A stretch of DNA of 43,613 bases from a virus (Duplodnaviria > Heunggongvirae > Uroviricota > Caudoviricetes), in the IMG/VR virus record IMGVR_UViG_2654587728_000013, positions 1 to 43,613 of that record; one strand, written 5' to 3'. The notes beneath the pieces are model-generated. The model was not told where the DNA came from. It did no database searches and worked only from the letters and a program-made list of their open reading frames with translations. A program made the position numbers and the translations under genes. Positions 3,875 through 43,613 of this stretch are shown here, piece after piece (the stretch's first letter is position 1; every line of letters starts with the position of its first letter).

Positions 3875-3881
3875 AGCCACC

Positions 3882-5020: not shown

Positions 5021-5032
5021 ACGAACCTCTCT

Positions 5033-5188
5033 ATTACCATTTTGGTAATACCTGGAGATGCAGGAAAACCACGAAGTGGTGGTTTCTGCCTGAGCGATGC
5101 GCTCATGTATTACCTTTTGGGTAATAATCAGATCAAAAAGTGATTGTGTCAATAGGTATGACGAGAAAAAAATTACCGTTTTGGTAAT
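5033..5188. promoter_or_regulatory. OL-like operator triplet: ATTACC-N5-GGTAAT at 5033..5049, 5109..5125, 5172..5188
   Basis: Three perfect 17-bp palindromes spaced 76 and 63 bp; minus-strand TTGACA (5147-5152) 17 bp from GATTAT overlapping site 2. Confidence 0.6.
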
Positions 5189-5245
5189 TGCGTGAGGCGC
5201 GAGCTTACCGCCATCGGGCAGGTAAAGCGTCAGAATGGCGGGGGA

Positions 5246-5842
5246 TTACTTGCTTTTGTTCTGCTCAAACACGAAGTTAATGAATGAGGTGATCTTGTTT
5301 TTCTCTTCCTGAGGCAGAGCTGCATACAACCTGTGGTCGTAGTCGATAACACCAGGAGCGCCGACGGGAATAATCATCTCGTATGCTTCATGCCCGAACG
5401 CGCGCGCCAGGGAGGAAAGAACGCCGATAGTTGTGCTGACTTCCGCTTTCATAATCCGGTTAACTGTGGCCGGGCCAATACCAGCTGCTACAGCAACTTT
5501 CTTTTCTGATGTCATTTCCGTGTTCTTTCTCATCCAGGCATTGAGCGTGGCTGCAGCCTGCTTCTCTACAGTCCATTCGCCATCATCAGTGGCCGGAATA
5601 AAGATATCAGCCTGTACCGCGTCCAGTTCGTGATCGACATCAAGCCAGAACTTTTCTTTGCGCGCTGCTTCCTCAATGATACGCGCTGCATTTGGTCCGA
5701 TGTTTTTGATGCCAGTGCACCACCTGTTGACCAGGTTCTGCGAACGCTTCACACGTTCGGCAAAGCGCAACTGGGTATCATCGAAATCCCGGCGAATGAT
5801 TTCGTTAAGGTTTTTGCGTCTTATGTCATAAATACTTTTCAT
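5246..5842 (-). CDS. prophage repressor, tandem XRE-type HTH, no LexA-like peptidase domain
   Basis: 198 aa; two HTH-like segments (QLRFAERVKRSQNLVNRW... and EKKVAVAAGIGPATVNRIMKAE...); flanked by operator triplets; divergent from Cro-like gene. Confidence 0.6.
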   Translation of the reverse strand: MKSIYDIRRKNLNEIIRRDFDDTQLRFAERVKRSQNLVNRWCTGIKNIGPNAARIIEEAARKEKFWLDVDHELDAVQADIFIPATDDGEWTVEKQAAATLNAWMRKNTEMTSEKKVAVAAGIGPATVNRIMKAEVSTTIGVLSSLARAFGHEAYEMIIPVGAPGVIDYDHRLYAALPQEEKNKITSFINFVFEQNKSK

Positions 5843-5895
5843 AGCTATTGTATTTGTCCATTTAATGTTACCTAACTGACTAAATTTAAATGAAT

Positions 5896-5959
5896 ATTAC
5901 CATAAAGGTAAAGTTACCATAACGGTAATAATCATTGATTTTTTCACCAGAAAGGTAAT
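5896..5959. promoter_or_regulatory. OR-like operator triplet: 5896..5912, 5913..5929 (TTACC-N5-GGTAA) and 5943..5959 (TCACC variant)
   Basis: Divergent intergenic region between repressor and Cro-like gene; plus-strand TTGATT (5935-5940) then TAATAA/ATAATT about 17 bp downstream overlapping third site. Confidence 0.6.
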
Positions 5960-5997
5960 AATTCAGATATGAATAGACAGGCTGAGATAAGCAAAAT

Positions 5998-6231
5998 ATG
6001 AGTGACGAAAAAAAATTTGATTTCAAAAAGCACTGGCTGGGACTGTCTCCTGATGAGCGTGAAGCATTTGCAGATGAAGCCGGAACCACCAGTCATTACA
6101 TCCAGACTCACCTGACCGGGCGCCGCAAGATGCCGGGTAAGCGACTGATGGACGGGCTGTTTAAAGCATGTCGCTCCCGCGAATGGACAAAGTCTAAACC
6201 TGAATTAGTGCTCTTCTTCTACGACCGATAA
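5998..6231 (+). CDS. Cro-like HTH regulator
   Basis: 77 aa; first rightward gene divergent from repressor; HTH-like segment AGTTSHYIQTHLTGRRKMPGKRLMDGL. Confidence 0.5.
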   Translation: MSDEKKFDFKKHWLGLSPDEREAFADEAGTTSHYIQTHLTGRRKMPGKRLMDGLFKACRSREWTKSKPELVLFFYDR

Positions 6232-6379
6232 CCCTCCCTGAACCCATCAATGCCGTCATTACCTGGCGGCTCCTTCCTGCATAAAACACCTTTTCGGTAA
6301 TAAAAAACCATATACGGTTGATCTTTTTTTCTTCCTGCATCAAAATCATCGTAATAGTAAACGTTAATGAGGTTGTGCA

Positions 6380-6580
6380 ATGGAGATTATTACTCGCCTT
6401 GACGCTGCAAAGGCAGGTCTTAAGCGTTATTACACCGGAAAACAGTGTAAGCATGGTCATGACAGTGAGCGCTACGTTTACAACGGGCACTGCGTTACAT
6501 GCGCCATCAACACGAGCCTGCGCCGCCAGGCAGAAATAAAGCAGCTCATGGCCGAAGCCAGCCTGCAACACTCAAGCTGA
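6380..6580 (+). CDS. small zinc-binding protein, possible CII-position regulator
   Basis: 66 aa; Cys/His cluster CKHGHDSERYVYNGHCVTC; position between cro-like and replication genes. Confidence 0.35.
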   Translation: MEIITRLDAAKAGLKRYYTGKQCKHGHDSERYVYNGHCVTCAINTSLRRQAEIKQLMAEASLQHSS

Positions 6581-6595
6581 CGACAGGTATTTACC

Positions 6596-7414
6596 ATGAG
6601 CAGATACGCAACAGAGTGGGCATGGAAAACAAATCCGGGCAGCTCATCACTGAAACTCATCCTGCTCTCGATGGCTGATCGAGCCGATGAATACAACCTG
6701 TGCTATCCAAGCATCGAACGCCTGGTTACCGACACAAGCCTGAATAAAAAAACAGTTCAGGCTGGTCTTATTTCGCTCATCGGAATGGGGCTAATTTCAG
6801 ATACAGGAGAAAGAAAAGGGGCAACAAGAAGGGTCCGGGTTTTCTCTTTAAACATACCCAAAAACGGTAATGTTACCAATATTGGGAATATACCCAAAAA
6901 CGGGAAGTTGAATGATCCCAAAAACGGGAAGTTGAATGATCCCAAAAACGGGAAGTTGAATGATCCCAAAAACGGGAAGTTGAATGATCCCAAAAACGGG
7001 ATGCAGAACCTATCAGTTAACCAGTCATATAACCAAGAGAAGGAGAGGGGCGATAAAACTGGGGGTTTAGTGCCTCAGAGGACTGACGCTAACAACGCCG
7101 TGATTAACAACTTTGTCCCTCCTGGTGGACTGGGGCAATTCGGGAAATTTGTCATGCATGAGCACTGGTCACCATCGGATGATTTCCTCCGGGTGTCTTC
7201 ATTGCAGGGCATTAACCTGGATTGCCAGCCAACGCCACAGGAGCTTGCAGAGTTCAGGGTTTACTGGATGGCCGAGGGTAAGGCTTTCCACCATGCGCAA
7301 TGGGAGCAAAAACTTGCCAGACGTCTGCAGATCAGCAGACAGAACAAACTTACCTCACCTGAAAACAACGTACCGCACTGGAACAGTCCAGAGGCGTGGG
7401 AGGATTTCCTGTGA
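6596..7414 (+). CDS. replication initiation protein (lambda O-like) containing the origin iterons
   Basis: 272 aa; N-terminal HTH-like domain; internal PKNGKLND x4 repeats encoded by DNA iterons; followed by P-like gene. Confidence 0.75.
   Translation: MSRYATEWAWKTNPGSSSLKLILLSMADRADEYNLCYPSIERLVTDTSLNKKTVQAGLISLIGMGLISDTGERKGATRRVRVFSLNIPKNGNVTNIGNIPKNGKLNDPKNGKLNDPKNGKLNDPKNGKLNDPKNGMQNLSVNQSYNQEKERGDKTGGLVPQRTDANNAVINNFVPPGGLGQFGKFVMHEHWSPSDDFLRVSSLQGINLDCQPTPQELAEFRVYWMAEGKAFHHAQWEQKLARRLQISRQNKLTSPENNVPHWNSPEAWEDFL
6857..7000 (+). repeat. origin-like iteron array: 4 perfect 24-bp direct repeats (6893..6988) plus flanking partial copies
   Basis: CCCAAAAACGGGAAGTTGAATGAT x4, with CCCAAAAACGG partials at 6857 and 6989; lies inside the O-like gene as in lambda ori. 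Confidence 0.75.
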
Positions 7415-14267: not shown

Positions 14268-14356
14268 ATCTGATGTTATAAGTGTCAATAGCCTACGCTA
14301 AATAAATCATATGTGGTTAAATTGGTAATAATTTAATTGCGTACGGAGCTATTGCT

Positions 14357-28500: not shown

Positions 28501-31046
28501 TGGCTAACGAATTTCTTACGCAATGCGAAATGACCGTCAATGCAGCTGCCGGGCGCAAGCTGTCTGATGACGAAATGGAATCTTTGGTGCGTGACATGAA
28601 CGACACCACAAACCGGATACTGGCTGGTAATGAAGCACTGACGCTGGAAGAAGCAGCGATGCGCGCCGCGCAGGAGCTTGGTAATCGCGAGCAACTGGCT
28701 AAAGTCATTGAGGCACGGAATAAGGCCATTAATACCCGTATTGCAGCTCAGCGCCTTGGCGAGCTTCGCCGGACTTGGAAAGACCGTCCGGACATCGGTC
28801 TGGAGGCTATTCTTGTCGGACGTAATGACGCGCGCACTGGTTCCCGCCGCTCGGTATCCTCTGAGGTTGCCCAACTGCGCGGTAAGTATCATGCTGGTAT
28901 CAACTATGATTTCGACCAGGCAGGACTGGTTAAATTTATTGCCAGTGGCAGCAATGACCGCGAGATAGCCGACGCCATGTGGCGCATTGGCCGCGGACAG
29001 AAAACGGACGGTATGACGCCGCAATCAGTCAGTGCCGCTAAGATCATCATGAAGTGGCAGGAAACTGCGCGCGTGGATGAAAACCGTGCTGGTGCCTGGA
29101 TTGGTAAGATGCCTGGCTACATCGTCCGGCAGTCGCATGACATACTGAAAATCCGTGCCGCCGGGTATGAATCCTGGCGCAATACCATTCTGCCGCGGCT
29201 GGATGATGCCACCTTTGACGGGATCACAGACCGAGAAGGGTTCCTGCGTGGTGTCTACGACGGCCTTGCCTCCGGTGTGCACCTTACCTCTGAAAAACCA
29301 GACTGGATGAATGGCTTTAAGGGATCGGCGAATGCGGCCAAACGAGCCAGCCAGGAGCGGGTGTTGCACTTCAAAGACGGTGTTAACTGGCACGAATACA
29401 ACGAGCAATTCGGAACTGGCAGCCTGCGTGAGGCAGTATTCGGCGGACTGAACAGCGCGGCGCGCACTACGGGCATGATGCGCGTGCTTGGTACCAACCC
29501 GCAGAACATGTTCAAGTACCTGACAGACACCATCGCAAAAGACGTGAGCAAGCAGAGCAACCCTTCGGCGCTGGCTGATTTCATGACCAAGGTGCGCCGC
29601 CTGAATCGCACGGTTATGCCACAGGTTGATGGATCGCTGAATATCCCCGGCAGTGTTGGCTGGGCTAATGCCTCAGCCAACGTGCGCGGCTGGCTGCGTA
29701 TGAGTCAGCTTGGAGGAGCGGTCATTTCATCTTTTAACGACGTGCCAATCTCGGCGACAGAAATGCGGTATCAGGGCCAGAACTTCATGCAGGCGCTGAC
29801 CGGCGCGATGAAGGGGCGCTTTTCCCGCTACACCAGTGATGAGCAGAAGGAGATCCTTTCATCTATCGGCGTTTACTCCGACGCGATGACGCAGGAAATC
29901 ATCCGTCGCATGTCTGGCGACGACAGCATGAGCGGCAAGATGGGGCGTGCGCAGCAGCTATTCTTCAAATACAACCTTATGAACTTCTGGACAGAATCCG
30001 GGCGTAACAGCAACGCCATGATGATAACAAACTGGCTGGCGAAGAACGCCGATCAGCAATTTTCTGCACTGCCGGAGGACCTGCGCCGCGTTCTGGACCT
30101 GCACGGCATAGGTGACGCTGAATGGAATATCTACCGCAGCATGGACATGGCAGACAGCGAAGGCCGCAAATTCATGACGACCAGCGGAATTCGTGGCGTT
30201 CCGGATGAGGTGATAGCCTCATATGTTGAAGGAAAAGGCATGAAGGTCACCGAGCGATCTATTGCCGATGCGAGAGACACGCTGGAAAGCCAACTTCGTG
30301 GGTATATTCTTGACCGACTAAACATCGCTATGTCAGAGCCGGGAGATCGTACGCAGGCGTTTATGAAGATGGGCACTGTACCAGGAACAGTAGCTGGGGA
30401 GGCAATACGTTTCGCTGGTCAGTACAAATCGTTCACTGCGAGTTTCATGCAGAACGTGCTTGGACGTGAGGTATTCGGGCGCGGTTATACTCCCGCTGGC
30501 CTGGGTGAATCAAAAACAGGATCGCTGACGAATGCGCTGCTGCGTAACGGAAAAGGTGCATTCTTGGGGGCGGCAAACCTGTTCGTCTGGGCAACCATGT
30601 TTGGCTATATCTCTATGCAGTCGAAACTATTGCTTAAGGGGCAGACGCCGCGTCCGGCAGATGCCAAGACATTCCTCGCAGCCGCATCTCAGGGCGGCGG
30701 CCTAGGCATCTTGGGCGACTTCATGTTTGGCGAAGTCAATCGCATGGGTGCTGGTCCAGTGACATCATTGATGGGGCCAGCCGCGTCGAACGCTGATAGC
30801 ATTATCACGCTGTTCCAGCAGACAACGCGCGGCGATGCAGACCTGGGTGACTGGTATCGCACCGCGCTGGACAATACGCCTTTCCTTAACGTGTTCTGGC
30901 TGCGCACAGCAATGAATGGTTTAATATTGAACCGTATACAGGATGCTCTTGACCCTGGATCACTGGAGCGCTATCAGCGCCGTGTTGAACGGGAGCAGGG
31001 TAACGACTTTCTGATCCCACCATCGCAGTTCATGCTAGGGAAGTAA
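28500..31046 (+). CDS. large internal virion / ejection protein (putative)
   Basis: 848 aa; last large gene of the core block. Confidence 0.5.
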   Translation: MANEFLTQCEMTVNAAAGRKLSDDEMESLVRDMNDTTNRILAGNEALTLEEAAMRAAQELGNREQLAKVIEARNKAINTRIAAQRLGELRRTWKDRPDIGLEAILVGRNDARTGSRRSVSSEVAQLRGKYHAGINYDFDQAGLVKFIASGSNDREIADAMWRIGRGQKTDGMTPQSVSAAKIIMKWQETARVDENRAGAWIGKMPGYIVRQSHDILKIRAAGYESWRNTILPRLDDATFDGITDREGFLRGVYDGLASGVHLTSEKPDWMNGFKGSANAAKRASQERVLHFKDGVNWHEYNEQFGTGSLREAVFGGLNSAARTTGMMRVLGTNPQNMFKYLTDTIAKDVSKQSNPSALADFMTKVRRLNRTVMPQVDGSLNIPGSVGWANASANVRGWLRMSQLGGAVISSFNDVPISATEMRYQGQNFMQALTGAMKGRFSRYTSDEQKEILSSIGVYSDAMTQEIIRRMSGDDSMSGKMGRAQQLFFKYNLMNFWTESGRNSNAMMITNWLAKNADQQFSALPEDLRRVLDLHGIGDAEWNIYRSMDMADSEGRKFMTTSGIRGVPDEVIASYVEGKGMKVTERSIADARDTLESQLRGYILDRLNIAMSEPGDRTQAFMKMGTVPGTVAGEAIRFAGQYKSFTASFMQNVLGREVFGRGYTPAGLGESKTGSLTNALLRNGKGAFLGAANLFVWATMFGYISMQSKLLLKGQTPRPADAKTFLAAASQGGGLGILGDFMFGEVNRMGAGPVTSLMGPAASNADSIITLFQQTTRGDADLGDWYRTALDNTPFLNVFWLRTAMNGLILNRIQDALDPGSLERYQRRVEREQGNDFLIPPSQFMLGK

Positions 31047-31047
31047 T

Positions 31048-31419
31048 ATGAACAGAATTATATTAATGACTCTTCTTATTTTTTTTGTTGGAAAAGCTTC
31101 TGCTGATACTACATCACCTTTAATGATTCAGCCTAAAAATGGAGAAACATTGGAGGATTCTAAAAAGCATACAATGGAATACTTTGGATGCATAAAAGGG
31201 CAGGCTGTAAAGTATGCCAAGACAGGAGAAAGTGTTGATTCCATATCAAAAGCTTCGGTTGTGTCATGCGAGTCATATATACCAATGATCGCCGAGTCGA
31301 ATATATATTATTTAAACTCTTCGCAAGATGGTAAGCGGCAATTTACAGAAAGGCTAAAATCTGATGGTGAGAGATTAGCCACAAAATTTGCCATGGATGA
31401 GAAGATTAAAAATAAATAG
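31048..31419 (+). CDS. small secreted protein (AT-rich moron)
   Basis: 123 aa; signal peptide MNRIILMTLLIFFVGKASA; visibly low GC (estimated ~35%, not computed). Confidence 0.55.
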   Translation: MNRIILMTLLIFFVGKASADTTSPLMIQPKNGETLEDSKKHTMEYFGCIKGQAVKYAKTGESVDSISKASVVSCESYIPMIAESNIYYLNSSQDGKRQFTERLKSDGERLATKFAMDEKIKNK

Positions 31420-31427
31420 GTGACCAC

Positions 31428-31724
31428 ATGCAAGCTATTGGTTTCATTGTTTACATAGTTGTTGGTCTTTTTCAGTTGGCTGCGATCATGGCTGGTCTTG
31501 AATCGTGGTGGGGACTGCACTGGATAGTGGCTGCACCCATTGCTTTCATCGTTAGTTATATCCCGTTGGTCGGTTCCATTGTTGGAATGGTTGGCGCTGT
31601 CGACGTATGGCGTTGGGAATGGTGGCAGGCAGGGCTTCTTTTCTTTGGCGGCCTGGTTTTTGCTATTGCGTGCGGGGGGATGTCTTCGTTCTTCGAATGG
31701 CTATCCTTCAGGAAAAGAGCGTGA
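31428..31724 (+). CDS. small three-TM membrane protein
   Basis: 98 aa; three hydrophobic helices; RBS AGGTGA; stop overlaps GTGACATGTCAC palindrome. Confidence 0.55.
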   Translation: MQAIGFIVYIVVGLFQLAAIMAGLESWWGLHWIVAAPIAFIVSYIPLVGSIVGMVGAVDVWRWEWWQAGLLFFGGLVFAIACGGMSSFFEWLSFRKRA

Positions 31725-31732
31725 CATGTCAC
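31721..31732. repeat. 12-bp palindrome GTGACATGTCAC (copy 3 of 3)
   Basis: Exact copy overlapping stop of 31428..31724; GC hairpin 25 bp downstream. Confidence 0.6.
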
Positions 31733-31748
31733 AAAGGCCACTGCACCC

Positions 31749-31771
31749 ACAAAAAAGCCCGCGTCGCGGGC
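31749..31771 (-). terminator. rho-independent terminator (minus strand; possibly bidirectional)
   Basis: GCCCGCG-T-CGCGGGC hairpin with A-run on plus / T-run on minus, directly after stop of 31772..32236. Confidence 0.55.
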
Positions 31772-32236
31772 TTACTCTTCTTCATCGCTACCAAAGAGCG
31801 GGTTATCGTTGTAGTCAGAGAGAAGAAACGGTATGTGCTCCCTCGAATACCCAACCACAACTATTTCATCTCCGTCTTTCGCATAGTGAATGCATTCATT
31901 TGAATGCTTCCCACCAGGGTTGAATTTTAAGTCAACAGTATGATTTCTGAAGGTGTTAGGATACCACGTGGGACCACAATGATAGTGCCAGTAATTTTCC
32001 TGCTCATAATTGTCTGAACCGGGAATTTTATCATAGTTGTCGTCAACCCAAGATGGCTTGTTTTTACCTACAAGCGTTCTGCCATTGGCAACATCTTCCA
32101 TAAAATTTTGGATGGTTTCCAACTCCAGGTCCGTGAGATGTGGTCCATCTACTGCGAAAGGTTCGTTACTGGCACCGGTTATAAAGCCAAATGCAACCCT
32201 AGGCTTAAACTTCAAGTTACACCCCTGACAGGTCAA
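31772..32236 (-). CDS. hypothetical protein with acidic C-terminal tail
   Basis: 154 aa; only start-like codon at 5' end is TTG immediately after in-frame TAA of upstream small ORF; start uncertain. Confidence 0.4.
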   Translation of the reverse strand: MTCQGCNLKFKPRVAFGFITGASNEPFAVDGPHLTDLELETIQNFMEDVANGRTLVGKNKPSWVDDNYDKIPGSDNYEQENYWHYHCGPTWYPNTFRNHTVDLKFNPGGKHSNECIHYAKDGDEIVVVGYSREHIPFLLSDYNDNPLFGSDEEE

Positions 32237-33504: not shown

Positions 33505-33765
33505 TTATGTGGTTTGCTTGCGTAACTGTTCCGCACAGTAATCGAGATGCGTTTGCAGATCCTGCATGGTCATTTGAGAGCTTGTTACGTAATTCACAAG
33601 GGCAACCAATTCAGCCAGCGGCCCGTCAACGTTGAAGCCGTCTTTATCGAGTTCCCGCAGCAACTTCATCAGATGCGAGTCCTCCACCAGGGATCTAACG
33701 CCTACCGGCGTGTGTATTCTTTCCTCAAATCCTTCTTCCAGCGGATGGTGATACTGCCGTTGCAT
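33505..33765 (-). CDS. stand-alone paralog of the antirepressor C-terminal domain
   Basis: Aligns by eye to C-terminus of 32500..33198 (HLMKLLRELDKDGFNVDGPLAEL vs SLMMSLLRQLDADGHDVEGAVAEF); start at MQRQYHH with GGAG RBS. Confidence 0.5.
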   Translation of the reverse strand: MQRQYHHPLEEGFEERIHTPVGVRSLVEDSHLMKLLRELDKDGFNVDGPLAELVALVNYVTSSQMTMQDLQTHLDYCAEQLRKQTT

Positions 33766-33840
33766 CTCTTCTTCTCCATGCAATCACTGTATAAACATAC
33801 AGTAGCAGAAGATTTACTGACTATCCAGCACGAAATGTAA

Positions 33841-33857
33841 ATTACCTGTAAGGTAAT
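33841..33857. promoter_or_regulatory. operator copy ATTACC-TGTAA-GGTAAT between antirepressor paralog and tailspike
   Basis: Perfect TTACC-N5-GGTAA in divergent intergenic region. Confidence 0.5.
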
Positions 33858-33962
33858 AAAGTATGTGTTCATTCCTCATTAGGTTCATATAAGGTTTTTA
33901 TGGTAATACAATGATTCAGAGTGCATGCGCGCCGGGCGCAAAAGCAATCTGGAGAAAATGAC

Positions 33963-36650
33963 ATGACGGTTTCAACCGAAGTTGACCACAATGACTACAC
34001 AGGTAACGGGGTCACGACATCATTCCCATATACCTTCCGAATTTTTCATAAGTCTGATCTGGTGGTGCGGGTTGTTGACCTGAGCGAAAACATCACTGAA
34101 TTAACACTGGACACTGACTACACGGTGACAGGTGCTGGCGGATATACTGGCGGGAATGTTGTTTTATCGTCGCCTCTTGCCAATGGTTATCAGATTTCGA
34201 TATCCAGAGAGTTACCGGTTACCCAGGAGACTGATCTCAGAAATCAGGGTAAGTTTTTCGCAGAAGTGCATGAGGATGCTTTTGATAAGTTGACCATGCT
34301 GATACAGCAGGCAATTAGTTGGCTGCGCCTTTCTTTACGTAAGCCGTCTTTTATTGCAAATTATTATGATGCCCTGGGTAACTACATACGAAATCTTCGT
34401 GACCCGTCACGACCACAGGATGCAGCTACAAAAAATTACGTTGACGGAGTTGCTGAAGGTAACACTTCTTATGCAGATTCTCTATTTAAAAGAACCTTAA
34501 GAGTTCCTGAGGATTATGTTGACCAGATACCATCAAATGCTGATAGATCAAATAAAATACTTGCTTTTGATTCTGGCGGTAAACCTATTGCTGTTTTACC
34601 TGAATCTGGTTCTGCTTCAGATGTTTTAATTGAGCTGGCAAATAACGGTGATAAAAAAATTGGTAGCTCATATGGAGGCACAGTTTATAGCGACTACCAA
34701 CGATCAATTTTTGTCAAAAAGGCAGAATTTTCTTCAGGTTTAACCATTTCATCAAAGAATGATGCTTGTCTTTATGCTGATGGGCTATGGTACGTATGGA
34801 CTGGAGCATTACCTCACACCATCTCGTCTGGTGAATTTCCGGATGTCGAAACAACTAAATGGGCATGCGTTGGACTTCTGAATGGTTACCGAATCAATGA
34901 AGTAAAAAATTTCATTGAGAAACCCGGCATCACAAATGATTCACCAGCAATTAAACTTGCTATTTACTCGTTAGTGCGTCTTGGCTACGGAGAGTTGATT
35001 GTTACAGCTAACTCAAAAGTAAACATAATCACAGAGGTTGCAATACCATTTGCCATTGATGGAATCCCTGTATCCATAGGAATAAGAGGTGAAGGTGTAA
35101 TAAACTCTCTGGGGAATGTCCCAGAGATAAGGTTTGGACTTAACTCAAGGGGGATTGTGTTTGGTAATGTTTGCTATTCATTAGACCGCCTGGTGTTATC
35201 ACAATATGTAGGATCAGAAAATACAGATGTGATAAGCAAAACATCCAACACCATTACTCTGGTATCAAATCCATTTCAGGCTAATGGTGGAAATATAATT
35301 ACATGGCCTTTGACTGACAACAACACCGCAGGTGTTCCAGTAAGTAACTTCTGTCAATTCAGCACTAACTCTGGGGCTTTCTTTGCTACAGGACTTGTTA
35401 ATAACTCTGATGGGAGTTGTACATTAACCGGAGTTACTGGGTGCAATGGAACCCCTTCGTCAGAGATATCGAACGTCACAAAAGTTGTCAGATTTACATC
35501 AAGAGCGCATCAGTTACCAGATGACACCTATCCGCGCACAGCAGCATGCATCAGTTTAGATGTCATAGAGAACCCTACTATAAGCAACTTATGGGTTCTG
35601 CAAACATATCGAACTTTCTCATTCAAAGATGGAAATGGAGGCGGAGAAGGTTCAGGTCTGGGTCATTACGGATTGTGGAATGACATCATAGTCGATGGGA
35701 CCAAAGAATTTGTAGGCGGTACAGATTTGAGTGGCGGCAGCATTCAAGGAATTGAAGGCGGACAGTTTGTTAATATCCATCTGTTTGGTACTAAGTATGG
35801 TTTTCGTGGCCGAAGAATGAAGTCATGTATGTTCTCAAACTGCACACACTATGCTTTTACAGGCGGTAAAATATTTGACATTCTGGAGTTTGATGGTTTT
35901 TCATGGGGAGGCGGTTCTATTGGTTGGAACTCAGGTTCTGGGTACATCAGCAATGTTATGGATTGTGTAAATGGTGATAACATTACATTCACCGGTGTTA
36001 AGTTTGGTAGGCACCACACTACAGAATCAGGACCGGCTTTTAAATGCTCATCTCGTTTTACTAATTTTTCATTTACCGGAAACAGCCATGAATCAGTGAG
36101 CGAAGGTGGATTCACTGATATTGGTTTCTTTGATGTAAATGAATTTTCTAGATCAAGTATTGGCGAAAACGCAATTGGGTTTAATGGTAATGGGCAACCA
36201 ACACTAACGATGTCTACTTCTGCACCTGATATTGCAAGATTCGCAGGTACTAGATTTAATCAGCCTGTTCTCACAAATGCCCCTGCTGGCATTTATGATA
36301 ACGAACATACTTCAGGTAAAGGAACATTCTATTCTACATCAGACTATCGTGACTCAGGTAAGATTTTAATAATACCTGATATTAACTCGGCCTCACCATG
36401 GCCTGATGATTCTAGAAATATAATAAAATTTGGCGGTACTTTATCTCCTGGTAAAACTCTAATGCTTCCAGAGCTAACTATATTGAATGGGACGCTTCTT
36501 AGGAGCATGGTTTTACTAGATCTTTCATCAGTAAATTTCAATGGTCAGACTATCGGTATTTATAATGGACCTACACTTATAACTACATTGTCATCACAAG
36601 GAATATATGAGTTTCTTAGTGTAGGATCTACTTATTACAGGATAAAATAA
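33963..36650 (+). CDS. tailspike / receptor-binding protein (mosaic)
   Basis: 895 aa from ATG with GGAGAAAA RBS (ORF track start 33921); N-terminal region of normal GC, C-terminal ~2.2 kb AT-rich and Gly/Asn/Ser/Thr-rich. Confidence 0.7.
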   Translation: MTVSTEVDHNDYTGNGVTTSFPYTFRIFHKSDLVVRVVDLSENITELTLDTDYTVTGAGGYTGGNVVLSSPLANGYQISISRELPVTQETDLRNQGKFFAEVHEDAFDKLTMLIQQAISWLRLSLRKPSFIANYYDALGNYIRNLRDPSRPQDAATKNYVDGVAEGNTSYADSLFKRTLRVPEDYVDQIPSNADRSNKILAFDSGGKPIAVLPESGSASDVLIELANNGDKKIGSSYGGTVYSDYQRSIFVKKAEFSSGLTISSKNDACLYADGLWYVWTGALPHTISSGEFPDVETTKWACVGLLNGYRINEVKNFIEKPGITNDSPAIKLAIYSLVRLGYGELIVTANSKVNIITEVAIPFAIDGIPVSIGIRGEGVINSLGNVPEIRFGLNSRGIVFGNVCYSLDRLVLSQYVGSENTDVISKTSNTITLVSNPFQANGGNIITWPLTDNNTAGVPVSNFCQFSTNSGAFFATGLVNNSDGSCTLTGVTGCNGTPSSEISNVTKVVRFTSRAHQLPDDTYPRTAACISLDVIENPTISNLWVLQTYRTFSFKDGNGGGEGSGLGHYGLWNDIIVDGTKEFVGGTDLSGGSIQGIEGGQFVNIHLFGTKYGFRGRRMKSCMFSNCTHYAFTGGKIFDILEFDGFSWGGGSIGWNSGSGYISNVMDCVNGDNITFTGVKFGRHHTTESGPAFKCSSRFTNFSFTGNSHESVSEGGFTDIGFFDVNEFSRSSIGENAIGFNGNGQPTLTMSTSAPDIARFAGTRFNQPVLTNAPAGIYDNEHTSGKGTFYSTSDYRDSGKILIIPDINSASPWPDDSRNIIKFGGTLSPGKTLMLPELTILNGTLLRSMVLLDLSSVNFNGQTIGIYNGPTLITTLSSQGIYEFLSVGSTYYRIK

Positions 36651-36672
36651 AAAAGCGGGGCATTGACCCCGC
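36642..36672 (-). terminator. rho-independent terminator (minus strand)
   Basis: GCGGGG-CATTGA-CCCCGC hairpin preceded on plus strand by A-run (T-run on minus). Confidence 0.55.
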
Positions 36673-36732
36673 AGCTAAACTATCTTCGAATCTTATTAAT
36701 TATCTTTCTTCCTAGATTAACAAAAGGCTTTT

Positions 36733-37698
36733 CTACTGTCCTGTAGAAATAATTAAAGGAATACCATTTATTAAATTGAAGTAACTTTTATATCCAACAA
36801 AGAAAGCAGAAGGATACTTATCACTCACATTTAATCTTTTCCCTAATCCGTATTTAGTGTCTAACCATACCACAACTTCATCATTATGTTTGTTCTTTGC
36901 AGTCATGCGGTAAACATTTGGATATTTACCCTTAGGGCCACTATCATTTGGTCCGCTGGAGGTGTCTTTCCATTCTTGAGAGTCACCTGATTCATAACAA
37001 ATTGAACTGTTAGCATACAGTTGGGAAAGTGCAGTTTGTAGTCCGTAGTAAGTGTGTATCCTCACCTTTTCAAGGGGAACCATTTTGATATGCACATCTG
37101 CACGTCCTTCATTAAATTTCATTTTTACTTTCTGTTGAATAATCTCTCTACCAGAACCATCTTTCTTTTTGGTGTTAAAGCCCTGTATGTTAGACGTAGT
37201 TTCTATCACTAAATCATTTGTATACCCCTTAAATGTATCATTGACCATCTTCCCATCTACCCATACCTGAAGAGAAACATGCCTGGCTGTAGGAGAGCCA
37301 CTCTGGTTCCCATTAAACCCATGCCAGCCACCTGTGAACTCAGCTATTGGGTCATCACCATCTTCATTACTTTCTGCGCTGACCATAATTGGTCCAATGA
37401 TGTCCGTGTCGAATGTTTGAACTGTCGTTAACCCATCCAGTCTGCCACTGGGAAAATCTGTATACTTCCAAGAAAAATTTTTGTAAATCCTTGAAAATGA
37501 AAATATTTTGTTAAGACCAGTTCTATTAAGCTCAATTACCCGGTCTTCAAGTAGTGAATATTTGTACTGAATTTTTATGTCTGCGTTCGGAACATCAACA
37601 CTAACGTACTGTTTTTCTTTTGCAACATCCTCAGACGCTGTTCCTGCTAACGTGCAAGCTATGATGATAAACAAAGAAATTGATATCGTTTTTTTCAT
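36733..37698 (-). CDS. predicted lipoprotein, function unknown (AT-rich moron)
   Basis: 321 aa; signal peptide with lipobox-like IIAC; low GC; convergent with tailspike. Confidence 0.55.
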   Translation of the reverse strand: MKKTISISLFIIIACTLAGTASEDVAKEKQYVSVDVPNADIKIQYKYSLLEDRVIELNRTGLNKIFSFSRIYKNFSWKYTDFPSGRLDGLTTVQTFDTDIIGPIMVSAESNEDGDDPIAEFTGGWHGFNGNQSGSPTARHVSLQVWVDGKMVNDTFKGYTNDLVIETTSNIQGFNTKKKDGSGREIIQQKVKMKFNEGRADVHIKMVPLEKVRIHTYYGLQTALSQLYANSSICYESGDSQEWKDTSSGPNDSGPKGKYPNVYRMTAKNKHNDEVVVWLDTKYGLGKRLNVSDKYPSAFFVGYKSYFNLINGIPLIISTGQ

Positions 37699-37816
37699 GC
37701 CAATTTACCCGAAAACAATCTTGTAGTAATCATAACTTTTCTGTGCATTTTTTTCATTTTGTTAGATTTATCCACAAATAATGTGTAGAAACTCGCCAAG
37801 AGTGTCATAGTTTATT

Positions 37817-37834
37817 TAAACCATATATGGTTTA
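37817..37834. promoter_or_regulatory. 18-bp perfect palindrome TAAACCATATATGGTTTA
   Basis: In divergent promoter region between lipoprotein gene and lysis cassette. Confidence 0.4.
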
Positions 37835-37894
37835 TTGTGTATGATGTGATCACCAACTAATGGGGGTCTTTATGCACAGTAAACGGTGGTCACC

Positions 37895-38299
37895 ATGTCA
37901 GCCCAGCTAACCAGTGAGTCTTTAAATCAGTGGCTTAGTATGGGTTCTCTGGCTGCAGTGATCGCAGGAGTTCCACCCGAAGTGGCGCTTGGTGCTTTAT
38001 CAGGTGCGGTAATATTTATTACCTCAGCCGTTGAGTATCCAATACGCCGCCGGGTTCTCCTGTCGATGCTCAGCTTCCTCTGCGGGCTTCTATTCTACAA
38101 ACCAACTGCATCAATCCTTATCGGCGTAGCCAGCCTGATCCCAACTATCACACAGGATTCATTCGAGAAAGGGATCGTCTTCTCTGCTGGCGCGTTCGTG
38201 TCGGCAATCGTCGCAGTACGTATTGGTATCTGGCTCTATCACCGTTCCGACAATCCACGCGATTTAATCCCGGGGAGAAAAGACGATGACAACTCATGA
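37895..38299 (+). CDS. holin-like membrane protein (about 4 TM)
   Basis: First gene of lysis cassette; multiple hydrophobic helices; ORF track start is GTG at 37886. Confidence 0.45.
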   Translation: MSAQLTSESLNQWLSMGSLAAVIAGVPPEVALGALSGAVIFITSAVEYPIRRRVLLSMLSFLCGLLFYKPTASILIGVASLIPTITQDSFEKGIVFSAGAFVSAIVAVRIGIWLYHRSDNPRDLIPGRKDDDNS

Positions 38300-38594
38300 G
38301 CTGCTTTTACTGATTGCCAATGCGGTTATCTGTTCTGCGATAGCAATCCGCGTCGGAACCTTCCGGCGTAATGGATCGCAACACCGCCGGTGGGGTGGGT
38401 GGATAGCCTACTTCCTTATCGTGGCATCAGCCAGCATCCCCGTCCGCGCCGCATATGCAATCTGGTATCACACACCAATGGCCGCTGATTTATCAGAGGT
38501 CATCATCAATGCTGTCATGCTTGCCGCTGTTCTGAAGACGCGCGGCAATGTCGTGCAGATATTCAAAATATCGAGGTCTCAACATGGACATTAA
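38286..38594 (+). CDS. holin/antiholin-like membrane protein (3 TM)
   Basis: 102 aa; three TM helices, basic C-terminus; overlaps neighbours. Confidence 0.45.
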
Positions 38595-39210
38595 CCAGTT
38601 CCGGCTAGCAGCCGGTATTACTGAACAACTGGCCACGCGCTGGTACCCACACATCACCGCAGCCATGAATGAGTTTGGCATTATTAAACCTGATGACCAG
38701 GCGATGTTTATTGCGCAGGTCGGGCATGAGTCCGAAGGGTTTACCCGGTTACAGGAAAACTTCAACTACAGCGTTAACGGTCTGTCCGGGTTTATCCGTG
38801 CCGGGCGTATCACTCCAGACCAGGCCAACGCACTCGGCAGGAAAACATATGAGAAGTCTCTTCCTCTGGAGCGCCAGCGCGCGATCGCCAATCTGGTGTA
38901 CAGCAAGCGCATGGGTAACAACGGCCCAGGTGATGGATGGAATTATCGCGGTCGTGGACTTATCCAGATCACTGGTCTGAACAACTACCGGGATTGCGGT
39001 AATGGTCTGAAGGTTGATCTGGTCGCTCATCCTGAACTGCTGGCGCAGGATGAATACGCGGCCCGCAGCGCGGCGTGGTTCTTCGCCAGCAAAGGTTGCA
39101 TGAAGTACACGGGAGACCTAGTGCGCGTCACGCAGATTATCAACGGTGGCCAGAACGGTATCGACGACCGGCGAGCACGTTACGCCGCTGCTCGTAAGGC
39201 ACTGTTATGA
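38584..39210 (+). CDS. endolysin, glycoside hydrolase family 19 (chitinase-like)
   Basis: [17 protein letters not shown] and QVGHESEGF motifs; start MDINQF (ORF track 38548). Confidence 0.8.
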
Positions 39211-39689
39211 TCTGGGCATTCATCAAAGCGTACTGGAAACAGTTGCTTATCGTAGTGATGCTTGCGGCGCTGGTTATCGGTGGAGTGGTTGCGTGGAAGG
39301 ATAACGGCGACCGGAAGTATGCCGCCGGGTATGCTCAGGCGCAGGCAGACCAGAAACAGGCTGATGATAAAGCCCGTAAACACGACGAACAGGAGAAAGT
39401 GATCAATGAACGTGAAGCGCAGCAGAGGATCGACCAGGCGCGTAATGATGCTCTTGATGCTTCCGCTCGCGCTGGCCGGTTGCAGCAACAGCTCGTTGCC
39501 ATCCGTGAGCAGCTCAGGCAGTATAACTCCACTGTCGGCGCTGGGACGTCAGCCGCAGATACCGGCGTTTTGCTTACCGACGTGCTCAGCAAATCTCTCG
39601 AGCGAAACCGACAACTGGCAGAGTACGCTGACCGGGCCGCCGAAGCCGGAAGAGTCTGTGAAAAGCAGTACGATTCGCTGACTAGGTGA
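39207..39689 (+). CDS. i-spanin (Rz-like)
   Basis: 160 aa; N-terminal TM helix then Gln/Ala/Arg-rich coiled coil; follows endolysin. Confidence 0.7.
39406..39681 (+). CDS. o-spanin (Rz1-like lipoprotein) embedded in +1 frame
   Basis: 91 aa; RBS AGGAGA; signal peptide with lipobox LALAGC; Pro/Ser-rich; fully nested in i-spanin gene. Confidence 0.6.
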   Translation: MNVKRSRGSTRRVMMLLMLPLALAGCSNSSLPSVSSSGSITPLSALGRQPQIPAFCLPTCSANLSSETDNWQSTLTGPPKPEESVKSSTIR

Positions 39690-40120
39690 CATGGCATTTT
39701 TCATGGTACTGATTTCCGGTGACGGTATATAAAACGGTACGGTAAAAATCGGTTTCAGGAAAATTGTTGTCAGTCAATTAGTTATGCTTACCGTAAATAA
39801 TTGAGTGGGAATGATTTAACGTCTGGCAACAGCCTGCACGTAAAAGCAGTAAAGTACCTCTAAGCCCGCGTAACTGCGGGCTTTTTTGTTTTTGTATCTG
39901 GCACTTTCTGGCAGCTGTTAGCAACGGGAAGCACGGTTTTTTCAATGGAATTTTTGATGGTACTCTCTGGTTTCGAATTCAGGTTTGAAAAAGTACCATG
40001 TGATAAATTTCGGTTGAGTTATGGTATTTATTTTTTATAACTCAATTAAAAACAGAGAGTTAAACAAGTTTTCTGAATTTTTTACAACATGGTATTTTTG
40101 ATAAAGGAAAACAATAAAAC
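39690..40120. other. candidate attP / integrase arm-site region
   Basis: Non-coding 430 bp upstream of int with repeated ATGGTA(C/T)T elements at 39702, 39955, 40019, 40088 and inverted copy AGTACCATG at 39992. Confidence 0.4.
39862..39893 (+). terminator. rho-independent terminator after lysis cassette
   Basis: AAGCCCGCG-TAACT-GCGGGCTT followed by TTTTTGTTTTT. Confidence 0.7.
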
Positions 40121-41311
40121 ATGTTGACTGACACCAGGCTGCGTCACCTTAAGCCGAAGGAGAAACTCTATAAAGTTAATGACCGTGATGGTCTGTATGT
40201 TGCGGTCACTCCGGCTGGAACTATTTCATTTCGTTATAACTATTCAATAAACGGAAGACAGGAGACCGTTACTTTTGGCCGCTATGGTGTTGGAGGGATC
40301 ACGCTTGCAGAAGCGCGTGAACGGCTCAATGAAGCTAAAAAAATGGTTGCCAGTGGAAGATCGCCAGCGAGGGAAAAAGCTAGAGATAAAGCTCGTATCA
40401 AAGATGCGGAGACTTTTGGTGCATGGGCTGAGAAATGGTTACGCGGTTATCAAATGGCTGAATCGACGCGTGATATGCGGCGTTCGGTATATCAAAGGGA
40501 GTTGAAGTCAAAATTTGCGCAGCAGAAATTGACCGAGATTACACATGAAGACTTACGCGCATTAACCGATAACATTGTCGAGAGAGGGGCACCGGCGACA
40601 GCTGTGCACGCCAGAGAGATTGTATTGCAAGTCTATCGCTGGGCTATTGAGCGCGGTCAGAAGGTTGAGAATCCCGCTGATCTGGTACGGCCTGCAAGCA
40701 TAGCGAAATTTGAGCCTCGTGACAGGGCATTGACGCCAGTTGAAATTGGTCTGATGTATCGGTACATGGAACGGGTAGGAACGACGCCATCAATCAGAGC
40801 AGCGGTTAAACTTTTGCTGTTAACGATGGTACGTAAAAGTGAGCTTACTAACGCAACCTGGAACGAGATCAATTTTAGTGAGGCATTATGGACGATACCA
40901 AAGGAGAGGATGAAACGACGTAATCCACATTTGGTTTTTCTTTCCAGACAGGCAATGGATATTATGATTGCTCTCAAAACCTTTGCCGGTAGCTCTGATT
41001 TTATCCTTCCTTCGCGGTACGATTCCGATGCGCCAATGAGTAGCGCTACTTTAAACCGGGTTTTGACACTGACGTATCGTCTGGCTCAGAAAGAAGGGGA
41101 CTTGTTACCTAAGTTTGGTCCCCATGACTTACGGCGTACTGCCAGCACCTTGCTACATGAGGCCGGGTACAATACTGACTGGATTGAGAAGTGCCTTGCC
41201 CATGAACAAAAGGGGGTACGAGCTGTTTATAACAAGGCTGAATATCGTGAGCAGAGGGCCGAGATGCTACAAGATTGGGCGAATATGATTGATGAATGGA
41301 CTAGTAAGTAG
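40121..41311 (+). CDS. int: site-specific tyrosine integrase
   Basis: 396 aa; N-terminal arm-binding-like domain (LTDTRLRHLKPKEKLYKV), C-terminal catalytic region with HDLRRT and conserved Tyr context. Confidence 0.9.
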   Translation: MLTDTRLRHLKPKEKLYKVNDRDGLYVAVTPAGTISFRYNYSINGRQETVTFGRYGVGGITLAEARERLNEAKKMVASGRSPAREKARDKARIKDAETFGAWAEKWLRGYQMAESTRDMRRSVYQRELKSKFAQQKLTEITHEDLRALTDNIVERGAPATAVHAREIVLQVYRWAIERGQKVENPADLVRPASIAKFEPRDRALTPVEIGLMYRYMERVGTTPSIRAAVKLLLLTMVRKSELTNATWNEINFSEALWTIPKERMKRRNPHLVFLSRQAMDIMIALKTFAGSSDFILPSRYDSDAPMSSATLNRVLTLTYRLAQKEGDLLPKFGPHDLRRTASTLLHEAGYNTDWIEKCLAHEQKGVRAVYNKAEYREQRAEMLQDWANMIDEWTSK

Positions 41312-41434
41312 TTAATAATCAGTGATTTAAGTGGATATACTTCTTTTATCTACGCCAGGAGAGCAATTTTAGCCGCTAAAATTTACTGAATCTTTACTGG
41401 TTTTATCTGGATTGCATAAAAAGGAAAAATAAAA

Positions 41435-42064
41435 GTGCCTGAGTTGTCTGTAATTATACAATGGATGAATCAATACCCTAAGACCGGCTGGCTATTGCTG
41501 TGTATCTATATTGCACTCGGTGTAGTTCGTCACAGAGTAATTAATGCTGAATCTGGAAGTGTATTTCGTGGACTACTCAATCTTAGGAAGCGCCGGCTAG
41601 AGCAAATGCTGACACAGCCATATTTGAATAAAAATGCGGTCCGTCTGGCAAAGCGTGAGCTTCGTCAGCGCAGCCTTTATCGGCTCACAGGCTTGTATAA
41701 TTATCGGCTGCAGGATTTGGCTGTAATAATGTGTGATCGTTATGGGTTGCGGGCTGGTTATCTCAAGCCGTGGCGTAACTGGCTCGAAGAACGGGATGGA
41801 CGGATTGTGTTCAACAGGAAATGGCATTGTTTTCGCTGGCGTCTTTTTCTGGTAGGTCAGATTGTAAACACAGTTCTACTAATCTTATTCATTATGTATA
41901 TAGTTTCTCATTCTTCGGCCGAAATGATCGCACCGCTTATGTTACTCTTCATGCTTGTATGGTGGTTTCCTTGGCTAATGATCACCTCGGTACCTACCCC
42001 TAGGTGGACTCGCGAAATGGAAGTCTATCTTGAGAAATTTAACGCTGAACAGACCATGGTTTAA
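41435..42064 (+). CDS. membrane protein, function unknown (AT-rich, integrase-adjacent)
   Basis: 209 aa; one N-terminal and two C-terminal TM helices around a basic cytoplasmic region; GTG start (ATG alternative at 41465). Confidence 0.45.
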   Translation: MPELSVIIQWMNQYPKTGWLLLCIYIALGVVRHRVINAESGSVFRGLLNLRKRRLEQMLTQPYLNKNAVRLAKRELRQRSLYRLTGLYNYRLQDLAVIMCDRYGLRAGYLKPWRNWLEERDGRIVFNRKWHCFRWRLFLVGQIVNTVLLILFIMYIVSHSSAEMIAPLMLLFMLVWWFPWLMITSVPTPRWTREMEVYLEKFNAEQTMV

Positions 42065-42641
42065 ACTGTTCTTTGTTACCATGCATTCAGAGTGAATTGT
42101 CAGAGTTTTGGAAGATTCCATCCTACGAGTAATACTCACAAGGTAATTCACATAATCAATAGGTTAAGTCATAAGCTTCTTGACCCTACATGAGAAGACG
42201 AATTTTAGCTGCTAAAAGTTTGGGCATATTTGGACTTAAATGCCACCGACATGATTCTAATAATTAAGCCAGTACCTAATGAGCCAAGAGAAGACAACTG
42301 TAAACGCCCCTTGGCTTAGACTTGCTTTCAGGAAAGCGAATGCTTTTTATGGTCAGGGACAAGTAAGGGGATGAGCCATTGCATAACCATAAAACCAATT
42401 CGTTCTATGTCATTACAGATCGGCTTCAGTGATTTACTGGTGAGGTAGTATCACTGTGATCCGTTTTGCATAACGCTTACAGCTGCGCTACAAACAATAA
42501 ACTATAATACTGTATTTTCAAAATCATCAATTTGAAGCAGGGTAATCGCGAAAAACCCTCGTAAGTGGCTGGTTATAATTCAATAAAGTGGATGATATTA
42601 AGACTTAAACTGCCACCATAATAGCTCGTGGATATACTATT

Positions 42642-43613
42642 TTAAATATTAAATTCTTTCCTCACAGACGCTAAGGCCTTGGACACAGCCTGCTTTGTCA
42701 TAGTTGTGTAGTGATTTTTTTCTAAAACCTGTGCGGTTTCAAACTGGTTAAAACCTTGGTGTTTTAATATGATTATTTTTTTCTTAGTATCAGTGAATTT
42801 GGAGTCAACCATTCGTCTGGCAATATTCCTAAGTTTATCTAGATCTGCTGGGGTTAAAGTTTGACCCTGCATCCACTCATGAAAATAGGTATCAATCAAT
42901 ATATCCCCTGTGTTTGCGTTAGCTTTATGCGGTTTAGCGCATTGCCGTCTAAGCCTTATTAATTCTTTATTGAACTGTTCGAGAGACCGCTTTCCTTGTC
43001 TGTATTTGGGATTCCATAGACCATTGGTGAGTTTGGGCCTATGGTCAGAACAATATCGATGACTAAGGACCTGTTTTTCATGAACGGGGAACTCATTATC
43101 GTTAGCAACAAATTCTGATATCTCACTGATCAACTTGGAAAATTCGGTTAGATTACCGCAGAACTCGCAATAACCGAGCTTACGCTGTGAATTTATAGTT
43201 ACTCCTTTTGCAGGAGAGGATTTCTTCGGCCGCTTGGATGCGCACTCACTGACTAATTCAATAAGAGACTCAATCGTAGCGGTAAAGCATTTATCAAGAG
43301 AAGTTTGTTGATCTAAAGTCAGAACGAAATTACGCAAAAGAAGTCTTTGTGCCTGTACTACGACGTTTAAGCCCACTTTTTTAAGTACATCACTAAATCC
43401 TAGATTTACTCCAGAAATGTAGTCTTTATGACTTGGTGGCAGGGAATTTACATAAGCAGCTACTGCTGGATCAATAACTTCCTGTATGAGACGCAGTATT
43501 GGATACCTCCGTGAAAATATGGAGTACGGATAACTACGCTCTACAAATAATTTAATTGCAGCTGCAACTGTGAGGTCACAGCCTTCCCAGATAGTAATTT
43601 TCATGTCAACCAT
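42642..43613 (-). CDS. hypothetical protein with C-terminal HTH (LuxR/sigma-70 region-4-like), possibly truncated at window edge
   Basis: 323 aa; AT-rich; C-terminus IIILKHQGFNQFETAQVLEKNHYTTMTKQAVSKAL; first ATG is the last 3 nt of the window. Confidence 0.45.
   Translation of the reverse strand: MVDMKITIWEGCDLTVAAAIKLFVERSYPYSIFSRRYPILRLIQEVIDPAVAAYVNSLPPSHKDYISGVNLGFSDVLKKVGLNVVVQAQRLLLRNFVLTLDQQTSLDKCFTATIESLIELVSECASKRPKKSSPAKGVTINSQRKLGYCEFCGNLTEFSKLISEISEFVANDNEFPVHEKQVLSHRYCSDHRPKLTNGLWNPKYRQGKRSLEQFNKELIRLRRQCAKPHKANANTGDILIDTYFHEWMQGQTLTPADLDKLRNIARRMVDSKFTDTKKKIIILKHQGFNQFETAQVLEKNHYTTMTKQAVSKALASVRKEFNI

Follow-up and report, generated by a model that had tools for sequence, protein, structure and literature searches.

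Seroconversion cassettes, such as gtrABC of P22, epsilon34, and the Sf phages and the Oac acyltransferase (AT3) of Sf6 and phiV10-type epsilon15-like phages, occupy the slot that separates the tailspike gene from the integrase or lysis genes. We analyzed a locus in this slot within a 43,613-nt stretch of DNA from a tailed phage (Caudoviricetes; positions 1 to 43,613 of IMG/VR record IMGVR_UViG_2654587728_000013; hereafter, the window). The locus contains a 321-amino-acid (aa) open reading frame (ORF) that begins with ATG and spans 36733..37698 on the minus strand. Like seroconversion cassettes, the ORF is AT-rich, moron-like, and carried on the strand opposite the tailspike gene, and its relatives adjoin and are co-directional with AT3 or gtrABC genes. 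Unlike the described cassettes, it specifies a predicted exported supersandwich protein, a component that we found in none of the literature searched, and the modifying enzyme itself has been deleted from the window. Our analysis leans, if only modestly, toward the view that the intact protein is exported and serves the seroconversion cassettes of prophages as an accessory that binds or processes glycans, acting alongside AT3 or Gtr enzymes, and that the window carries a disabled or impaired copy.

To define the lesion in this copy, we compared the window with the corresponding prophage of enteropathogenic Escherichia coli (EPEC) strain E2348/69 (locus L001) using blastn. Window positions 33505-36739 matched L001 6847 and the sequence leading to it (3612-6847, 98.3% identity), and positions 36737-39817 matched L001 8001-11081 (96% identity). 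Since the flanking matches abut in the window, 1,153 bp (L001 6848-8000) are missing from it. The lost segment comprises nearly the whole 357-aa Acyl_transf_3 (AT3) gene, the intergenic spacer of 93 nt, and, from the ORF's own gene, the final 46 nt. The latter gene is thus shortened by its last 14 codons relative to the 335-aa form. A short microhomology marks the junction, beyond which the 3′ end of the AT3 gene remains (Table 1); read in another frame, this remnant provides the TAG (36733-36735) at which the truncated ORF ends. Consistent with this history, all full-length relatives are 335 or 339 aa long, and alignment revealed that they continue for 14-18 residues beyond the end of the window allele, with ...SAEVHGGLEWIRSN or a variant of it that the window allele lacks. 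The truncated allele was present on 2-3 contigs and the full-length allele on at least 139. The common state, a full-length gene followed by AT3, occurs mostly in Salmonella enterica and also in the E2348/69 lineage.

A preliminary description of the locus from its sequence had assigned the ORF a terminator of its own. These comparisons alter that picture, as the ORF is no complete and independent unit but the truncated survivor of a two-gene one. A terminator-like hairpin does exist, reading on the minus strand (36672-36655) as GCGGGGTCAATGCCCCGC followed by TTTTTTATTT. As it lies 8 nt beyond the AT3 stop codon, it belonged to the former two-gene unit, in which it was the terminator of the AT3 gene.

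The truncation removed a conserved part of the protein. In the AlphaFold2 (AF2) model of the full-length form, the lost segment is an 11-residue strand (323-333), in a block with a predicted local distance difference test score (pLDDT) of 97. Among 152 diverse sequences over which we measured conservation, this strand bears three of the best-conserved positions of the family: G327 (99%) and the aromatic positions 329 (91%) and 331 (86%). Since the deletion took both the AT3 gene and this last β-strand, the window copy is most likely non-functional or impaired. Damage of another kind was seen elsewhere. In the argW prophage of E. coli 2017.01.04CC (L056 2779-6362), the gtrB and gtrC genes that follow the homologue are disrupted by the insertion sequences IS3 and IS1, and in strain S1 an IS1 lies just upstream of the homologue. 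Thus, decay of the cassette is common and not confined to the window.

Several observations establish the ORF as a real gene. Searches recovered 48 homologues of the 321-aa protein (E ≤ 1e-3), including an enterobacterial clade that is 74-99% identical, and the ratio of nonsynonymous to synonymous substitution rates (dN/dS) between the window allele and a 75%-identical E. coli allele was 0.20. The exact 321-aa protein is deposited as WP_052930564.1 (E. coli). An in-frame TAA two codons before the ATG excludes a start further upstream. The ORF map also bore out the earlier account of a 321-aa frame antisense to both of its neighbors, and the AT-richness noted there is pronounced, as the GC content of the ORF is 37.6%, compared to 53.1% for the phage backbone and 40.5% for the tailspike gene. 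We regard the ORF as a horizontally acquired accessory gene (moron).

We could not assign the protein to any named family. Scans of Pfam, PHROGs, NCBIfam, and PADLOC gave no significant match, nor did Pfam scans of 34 relatives, each individually, and neither the single protein nor a family profile matched any sequence in the PDB. At the sequence level, the protein belongs neither to the aldose 1-epimerase family (Pfam Aldose_epim) nor to the CAZy families GH174, PL26, and PL4. The preliminary description had likewise failed to place it, and had raised the prospect of a housekeeping host lipoprotein picked up incidentally; no such family was matched in the library scans.

Structure prediction was more informative. 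The AF2 model was all-β (pLDDT 88.6; predicted template modeling score, 0.85), with residues 1-25 disordered, and its predicted fold is a supersandwich that matches several members of the galactose-mutarotase-like superfamily. Structural neighbors were the PL26 exo-rhamnogalacturonan lyase (score 15.3), GH174 endo-1,3-fucanases (15.2), aldose 1-epimerases (about 14), the YidC periplasmic domain (12.5), and OpgG/OpgD (about 12), with identities of just 5-12%; a Foldseek search against the PDB was concordant. The intact protein is therefore modeled as a single galactose-mutarotase-like β-supersandwich. The supersandwich enzymes among such proteins (GH174, 8jd7/9k1g; PL26, 5xq3; PL4, 1nkg; aldose 1-epimerases; OpgG/OpgD) have carbohydrate substrates that lie outside the cytoplasm; OpgG/OpgD, which are periplasmic, resemble the predicted exported protein in this respect as well. 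Unlike these enzymes, to which its sequence is so distant that not even the profile connects them, the family lacks a Pfam match and has a conserved set of residues (D, H, T, K, Y, N, and Q) of its own.

To learn how widely the domain occurs, we searched 1.84 billion representative proteins with the family profile and obtained 1,379 clusters at E ≤ 1e-3, of which 864 had E ≤ 1e-30. Among 184 sequences whose architecture was examined, 105 were stand-alone proteins of ~320 aa and 69 had more than 150 extra N-terminal residues. The domain was at the very C terminus, with 15 or fewer residues after it, in 160 of the 184. Several of the longer proteins are phage tail or virion proteins. The best fold matches in BFVD were two Pseudomonas phage proteins of 1,182-1,189 aa, and some of the lower-ranked matches were annotated as "distal tail protein" or "tail fiber protein"; the domain was C-terminal in proteins of 441-1,285 aa. 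On IMG/VR contigs it ends proteins of 441-936 aa, one of which is encoded after minor tail genes, while another matches a virion-structural-protein PHROG. In gp23 of Pseudomonas phage DDSR119, a distant homologue and a C-terminal GDSL/SGNH domain share one polypeptide.

Outside phages, the company of the domain is also telling. Its fusion partners include DUF4855, F5/8 type C (discoidin), Ig, and dockerin domains. In Bacteroidota, genes for DUF4855 and DUF4434 proteins adjoin it in 13-17 loci (polysaccharide-utilization loci, PULs), with smaller subsets adding SusC/SusD, NagA/NagB-like, and GFO-type oxidoreductase genes. In a Clostridia genome, a homologue lies within a polysaccharide-synthesis cluster that encodes a Wzx-like flippase, a UDP-glucose dehydrogenase, glycosyltransferases, and NAGPA. 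These contexts (Bacteroidota, Clostridia, and fusions) all concern polysaccharides. We also observed a 366-aa secreted homologue in a Paenibacillus sp. (L013 6001-9177), where its gene lies directly upstream of, and on the same strand as, a gene for an LtaS-type lipoteichoic acid synthase, a further setting that involves a polymer of the cell envelope.

Despite this diversity of settings, a polar core is fixed. Across the 152 sequences, D99, P103, G123, G124, H126, T137, K304, Y306, and G327 were at least 98% conserved, and N63, T122, N175, Y218, and Q221 at least 92%. Since the polar set is constant across such varied contexts, a catalytic or fixed sugar-binding center fits better than a variable receptor-binding tip. 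One position departs from this pattern. Residue 189 is E in 93% of the family, and the enterobacterial clade combines Q189 with S169 where the majority combines E189 with N169. As the change covaries with position 169 and as a minority of the tail-protein homologues also carry Q189/S169, we read E189Q as a subfamily variant; for the same reasons, we rejected it as decisive evidence of a pseudoenzyme.

In enterobacteria, the gene was found in a strikingly uniform setting. All intact relatives that we examined belong to P22-like or epsilon15-like prophages, in which they occupy the moron slot beside the tailspike gene, and all lie immediately upstream of O-antigen-modification genes on the same strand. 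In E2348/69, Salmonella, E. coli S1, and one IMG/VR prophage, the downstream gene is AT3, 93 nt away; in E. coli argW prophages and Citrobacter, it is the first gene of gtrA-gtrB-gtrC. The window copy occupies the same slot and, with only 60 nt of AT3 left, retains no O-antigen-modifying enzyme. These physical ties to AT3 or gtrABC, in a slot known for such genes in epsilon15-like and P22-like prophages, uphold the link to surface polysaccharide that had been proposed for the locus. Tailspikes and modifying enzymes vary among the carrier prophages, yet the central 165 residues of the protein are almost invariant, which hints at a serotype-independent ligand.

Carriage of the gene is uncommon. 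Among 5,426 complete E. coli genomes, most of its length was present in about 10, and no enterobacterial species representative genome carries it. When 50,697 phage records were searched with tblastn, only two Pseudomonas phage tail proteins matched, and no isolated enterobacterial phage did. Kapi1, an O-antigen-modifying E. coli phage with unexplained seroconversion, was considered as a carrier and rejected, as it was not among the tblastn matches and the paper describing it names no such protein. The neighboring tailspike gene (compared over window 33505-36650 and L001 3612-6758) has 98.3% DNA identity among the window (E. coli), EPEC O127:H6 E2348/69, and Salmonella enterica, indicating that the tailspike module and the conversion cassette are shared across genera.

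We next consider whether the protein is a lipoprotein, as the preliminary description proposed. The N terminus of the window allele consists of a basic MKK followed by TISISLFIIIA, which passed a hydrophobic-stretch test, and Cys15 satisfies a PROSITE PS00013-type lipobox pattern at the lowest allowed position (15-35). A competing signal peptidase I (SPI) site, AGTA/S, follows residue 22. Alleles from Salmonella and Citrobacter (…LLSISC) likewise pass the lipobox pattern. In the E. coli argW-prophage clade, however, the signal region has no cysteine (P0012, P0015-P0020, and P0025) or, in P0014, one at position 17 that does not fit the pattern, and the whole clade has the SPI-type site KIANA/DD where the window allele has AGTA/SE. 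The lipobox cysteine is therefore not conserved among orthologues. Since the SPI-type site is kept where the cysteine is missing, export is the conserved property, and we infer that the gene product is exported. A signal peptide or lipobox likewise opens most of the stand-alone proteins in the wider family. The lipobox pattern thus stands, and lipid anchoring would be allele-specific at best, leaving lipoprotein status uncertain and at the level of a sequence pattern. The clearest lipoprotein signal near the locus is in a different gene. A 91-aa ORF (39406-39681, plus strand), which lies in another frame inside the DUF2514 gene (39207-39689), has a canonical lipobox and no Pfam match. It fits an Rz1-type o-spanin, with the DUF2514 gene taken as Rz-like.

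In the reading that we favor, the ORF is the remnant of the first gene in a lysogenic-conversion unit composed of an exported supersandwich protein and an AT3 O-acyltransferase. The unit lies on the minus strand of an epsilon15-like prophage, with the tailspike gene on one side and the lysis genes on the other. The full-length 335-aa protein would be exported by the Sec pathway. The window allele may be lipid-anchored via Cys15, and the E. coli argW-prophage alleles are probably soluble in the periplasm. The invariant polar residues (D99, H126, T137, K304, and Y306), together with the nearly invariant N63, N175, Y218, and Q221, would form part of a polysaccharide-binding or polysaccharide-cutting module, a role also suggested by the presence of the domain at phage tail-fiber ends, in PULs, in DUF4855, discoidin, and dockerin fusions, and in a polysaccharide-synthesis cluster. 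In lysogens, the protein may work in the periplasm or envelope, together with AT3 or Gtr enzymes, where its target would be O-antigen or some other glycan of the envelope, and so contribute to receptor alteration. In the window, the 1,153-bp deletion would have ended or weakened this activity.

Some of our observations weigh against this interpretation. First, association of genes in a neighborhood is not proof of shared function. Second, Q189/S169 is found in the whole enterobacterial clade, whose chemistry may differ from that of the family majority. Third, the truncated and Salmonella alleles differ by only 2 amino acids, so that the truncation is recent and partial activity is possible; AF2 gives the truncated protein the same fold (pLDDT 87.8), a result that is uninformative on stability, lends no weight to misfolding, and does not separate the alternatives considered below. 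Lastly, the literature searched holds no biochemical or genetic data for any family member.

A bolder form of the proposal is that the 335-aa protein represents a hitherto unrecognized third kind of seroconversion-cassette component, an exported supersandwich enzyme or adaptor co-opted from a tail-fiber tip domain. Such a protein might pre-process or present an envelope glycan for AT3-only or GtrC-type enzymes, or might itself trim the receptor. Candidate glycans are O-antigen linked to undecaprenyl pyrophosphate (Und-PP) or a serotype-independent glycan such as enterobacterial common antigen (ECA). We put this forward as a speculation and consider it unlikely.

Of the alternatives to an accessory that works with AT3 or Gtr enzymes, the one that survives best casts the protein as a lectin or decoy without catalytic activity, which would have arisen from a tail-fiber tip and would coat or sequester a conserved envelope glycan. 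The predominance of the domain at the C terminus of long proteins in viral structural-gene modules (with the 160 of 184 noted above) fits this explanation, as do the Q that replaces the 93%-conserved E189 in enterobacteria and the near-invariance of the central 165 residues in the face of varied tailspikes and modification genes, which suggests a serotype-independent ligand. Nonetheless, the nine positions, polar or glycine, that are at least 98% conserved across the 152 sequences are more typical of a catalytic center, the covariation of E189Q with position 169 and its occurrence in tail-protein homologues favor a subfamily variant rather than inactivation, and the closest folds include the catalytic supersandwich domains of GH174, PL26, and GalM. 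On balance, we consider a lectin or decoy unlikely.

A second alternative is that the protein is a periplasmic partner of AT3-only O-acyltransferases, as the SGNH domain is in OafA/OafB or as PatB is for PatA. It would receive the acyl group from the AT3 membrane protein or else present O-antigen to that protein. Like the SGNH domain of OafA/OafB and PatB, the protein is a predicted exported product encoded beside a glycan-modifying membrane acyltransferase (PMC9558356), and in four independent prophage contexts its gene directly precedes an AT3-only gene on the same strand, with 93 nt between them. Moreover, the possible need of AT3-only proteins for a partner, "SGNH or otherwise", is described in a review as an open question (PMC9558356), and in DDSR119 gp23 a distant homologue is joined to an SGNH/GDSL domain. 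However, the same review concludes that AT3-only proteins probably work alone (PMC9558356), the gene precedes gtrABC just as readily, in prophages that have no AT3 gene nearby, and AT3 occurs alone in the same slot of other prophages. The fold is also wrong for an SGNH protein, being an all-β supersandwich rather than α/β/α. There is no GDSL Pfam match, the conserved residues lack the SGNH blocks (GDS(L) and DxxH), and no Ser-His-Asp-type motif is conserved. We therefore regard a partnership of this kind with AT3 as quite improbable.

The weakest alternative is the one raised at the outset, that an intact outer-membrane lipoprotein brings about autonomous superinfection exclusion through a blocked receptor, in the manner of T5 Llp or Cor. 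The protein shares with Llp and Cor a phage origin and an N-terminal lipobox-type signal, and a role in superinfection exclusion is plausible; the Thr at +2 after the lipobox Cys would direct a lipoprotein to the outer membrane, and the gene sits in a moron slot next to the tailspike. We nevertheless found no support for such blocking and judge it very unlikely, because the ORF is truncated and its partner gene gone, the cysteine is missing from the E. coli clade, which keeps an SPI-type site alone, the modeled fold is a carbohydrate-enzyme-like supersandwich of some 300 residues, several times larger than these small outer-membrane blockers, no sequence-family link to them and no match in PHROGs or PADLOC was found, and the resident phage type has as its receptor the O-antigen, read by the tailspike, rather than a protein that could be plugged.

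The region upstream of the ORF contains a palindrome, which had been described as part of a promoter region shared by the ORF and the divergent lysis genes. The palindrome is present, perfect, and 18 bp long (Table 1), but it does not point to a promoter shared with the ORF. In the prophage of E. coli VE-T9, where AT3 is alone in the slot and the ORF's gene is absent, homology to the window begins exactly at the palindrome core, AACCATATATGGTT, and extends into the holin gene. In addition, near-copies with 3 mismatches each occur at 6304-6321 and 14303-14320, giving three matches to the motif (consensus about wAAAyCATATryGGTTrA) where 0.01 is expected by chance. Judging from ORF maps and Pfam matches, each copy is apparently just upstream of a plus-strand operon (early/replication, portal/structural, and lysis). 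Since the palindrome is kept in a prophage that lacks the gene and recurs before two other operons, it is an element of the phage backbone, and we propose it as a candidate operator or activator site of the epsilon15-like prophage. Its conservation in VE-T9 also led us to reject it as an operator of the 321-aa ORF. As for a promoter of the ORF, a single weak sigma-70-like match was found (Table 1), and such matches are not above chance, with 3 sites found versus 4.8 expected from shuffled sequences.

Table 1. Features at and around the truncated ORF (window coordinates)
Feature	Coordinates	Strand	Basis or remark
Tailspike gene	33921..36650	+	Pfam Tail_spike_N; DNA 98.3% identical to the E2348/69 prophage tailspike
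Intrinsic-terminator-like hairpin and T-run	36645..36672	-	Overlaps the tailspike stop codon
AT3 3′-end remnant, 60 nt (encodes TVEKPFVNLGRKIINKIRR, then stop)	36680..36739	-	Base-by-base comparison; AT3 intact in relatives
Truncated ORF	36733..37698	-	3′-truncated allele of a 335-aa protein, predicted to be exported and to have a supersandwich fold
Deletion junction, 3-bp microhomology TGT	36737..36739		blastn and base-by-base comparison
Putative signal peptide, codons 1-15 (MKKTISISLFIIIAC), with lipobox-type IIAC and Cys15	37654..37698	-	Pattern test
Weak sigma-70-like match, ATGAAA-17-TATGAT	37729..37757	-	Sole match for the ORF
Perfect 18-bp palindrome, TAAACCATATATGGTTTA	37817..37834		Marks the right edge of the moron slot; lysis-operon leader
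Lysis cassette: Phage_holin_8, Phage_holin_3_7, GH19 endolysin, and DUF2514 protein	37886..39689	+	Divergent from the 321-aa ORF

The ORF converges tail-to-tail on the tailspike gene, and at its other end it stands head-to-head with the holin gene that begins the lysis cassette (holin gene, 37886..38299, plus strand). Other parts of the window deserve mention. The prophages of E2348/69 and Salmonella stop directly behind the DUF2514 gene, where host genes take over. The window instead continues at 40121-43613 with a tyrosine integrase gene (40121-41311) and unannotated AT-rich ORFs, and a related contig (L003) shows an AlpA gene past the point where the window ends. This arrangement suggests a second integrative element beside the prophage. 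Just beyond the long structural genes, the GC content dips sharply to 37% (31001-31500). Two small ORFs of 123 and 127 aa with no Pfam match lie here (31048-31923) and may be another moron.

What is already known about this locus is its type, a seroconversion moron, and the fold. What is new is the family, for which there is neither a model nor a description, together with its repeated occurrence as the leading gene of AT3 and gtr cassettes, which is unreported in the literature searched; in particular, we found nothing relevant on DUF4855, on supersandwich tail domains, or on genes upstream of gtrA. For the window itself, the practical message is more modest: this copy should be annotated as a deletion remnant.

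The wider interest lies in the cassettes. In E. coli, Salmonella, and Citrobacter, they determine the serotype, susceptibility to phages, and recognition by the immune system. The full-length protein is a concrete candidate for a periplasmic helper of AT3-only acyltransferases, whose need for one is an open question (PMC9558356). Were it to prove a third kind of cassette component, this would define an activity for an unmodeled family of at least 1,379 clusters that spans phage tail fibers and PULs. An assigned activity would in any case allow annotation of this large family in phage tails and in the PULs of Bacteroidota, and the domain may turn out to be a new depolymerase or binding module.

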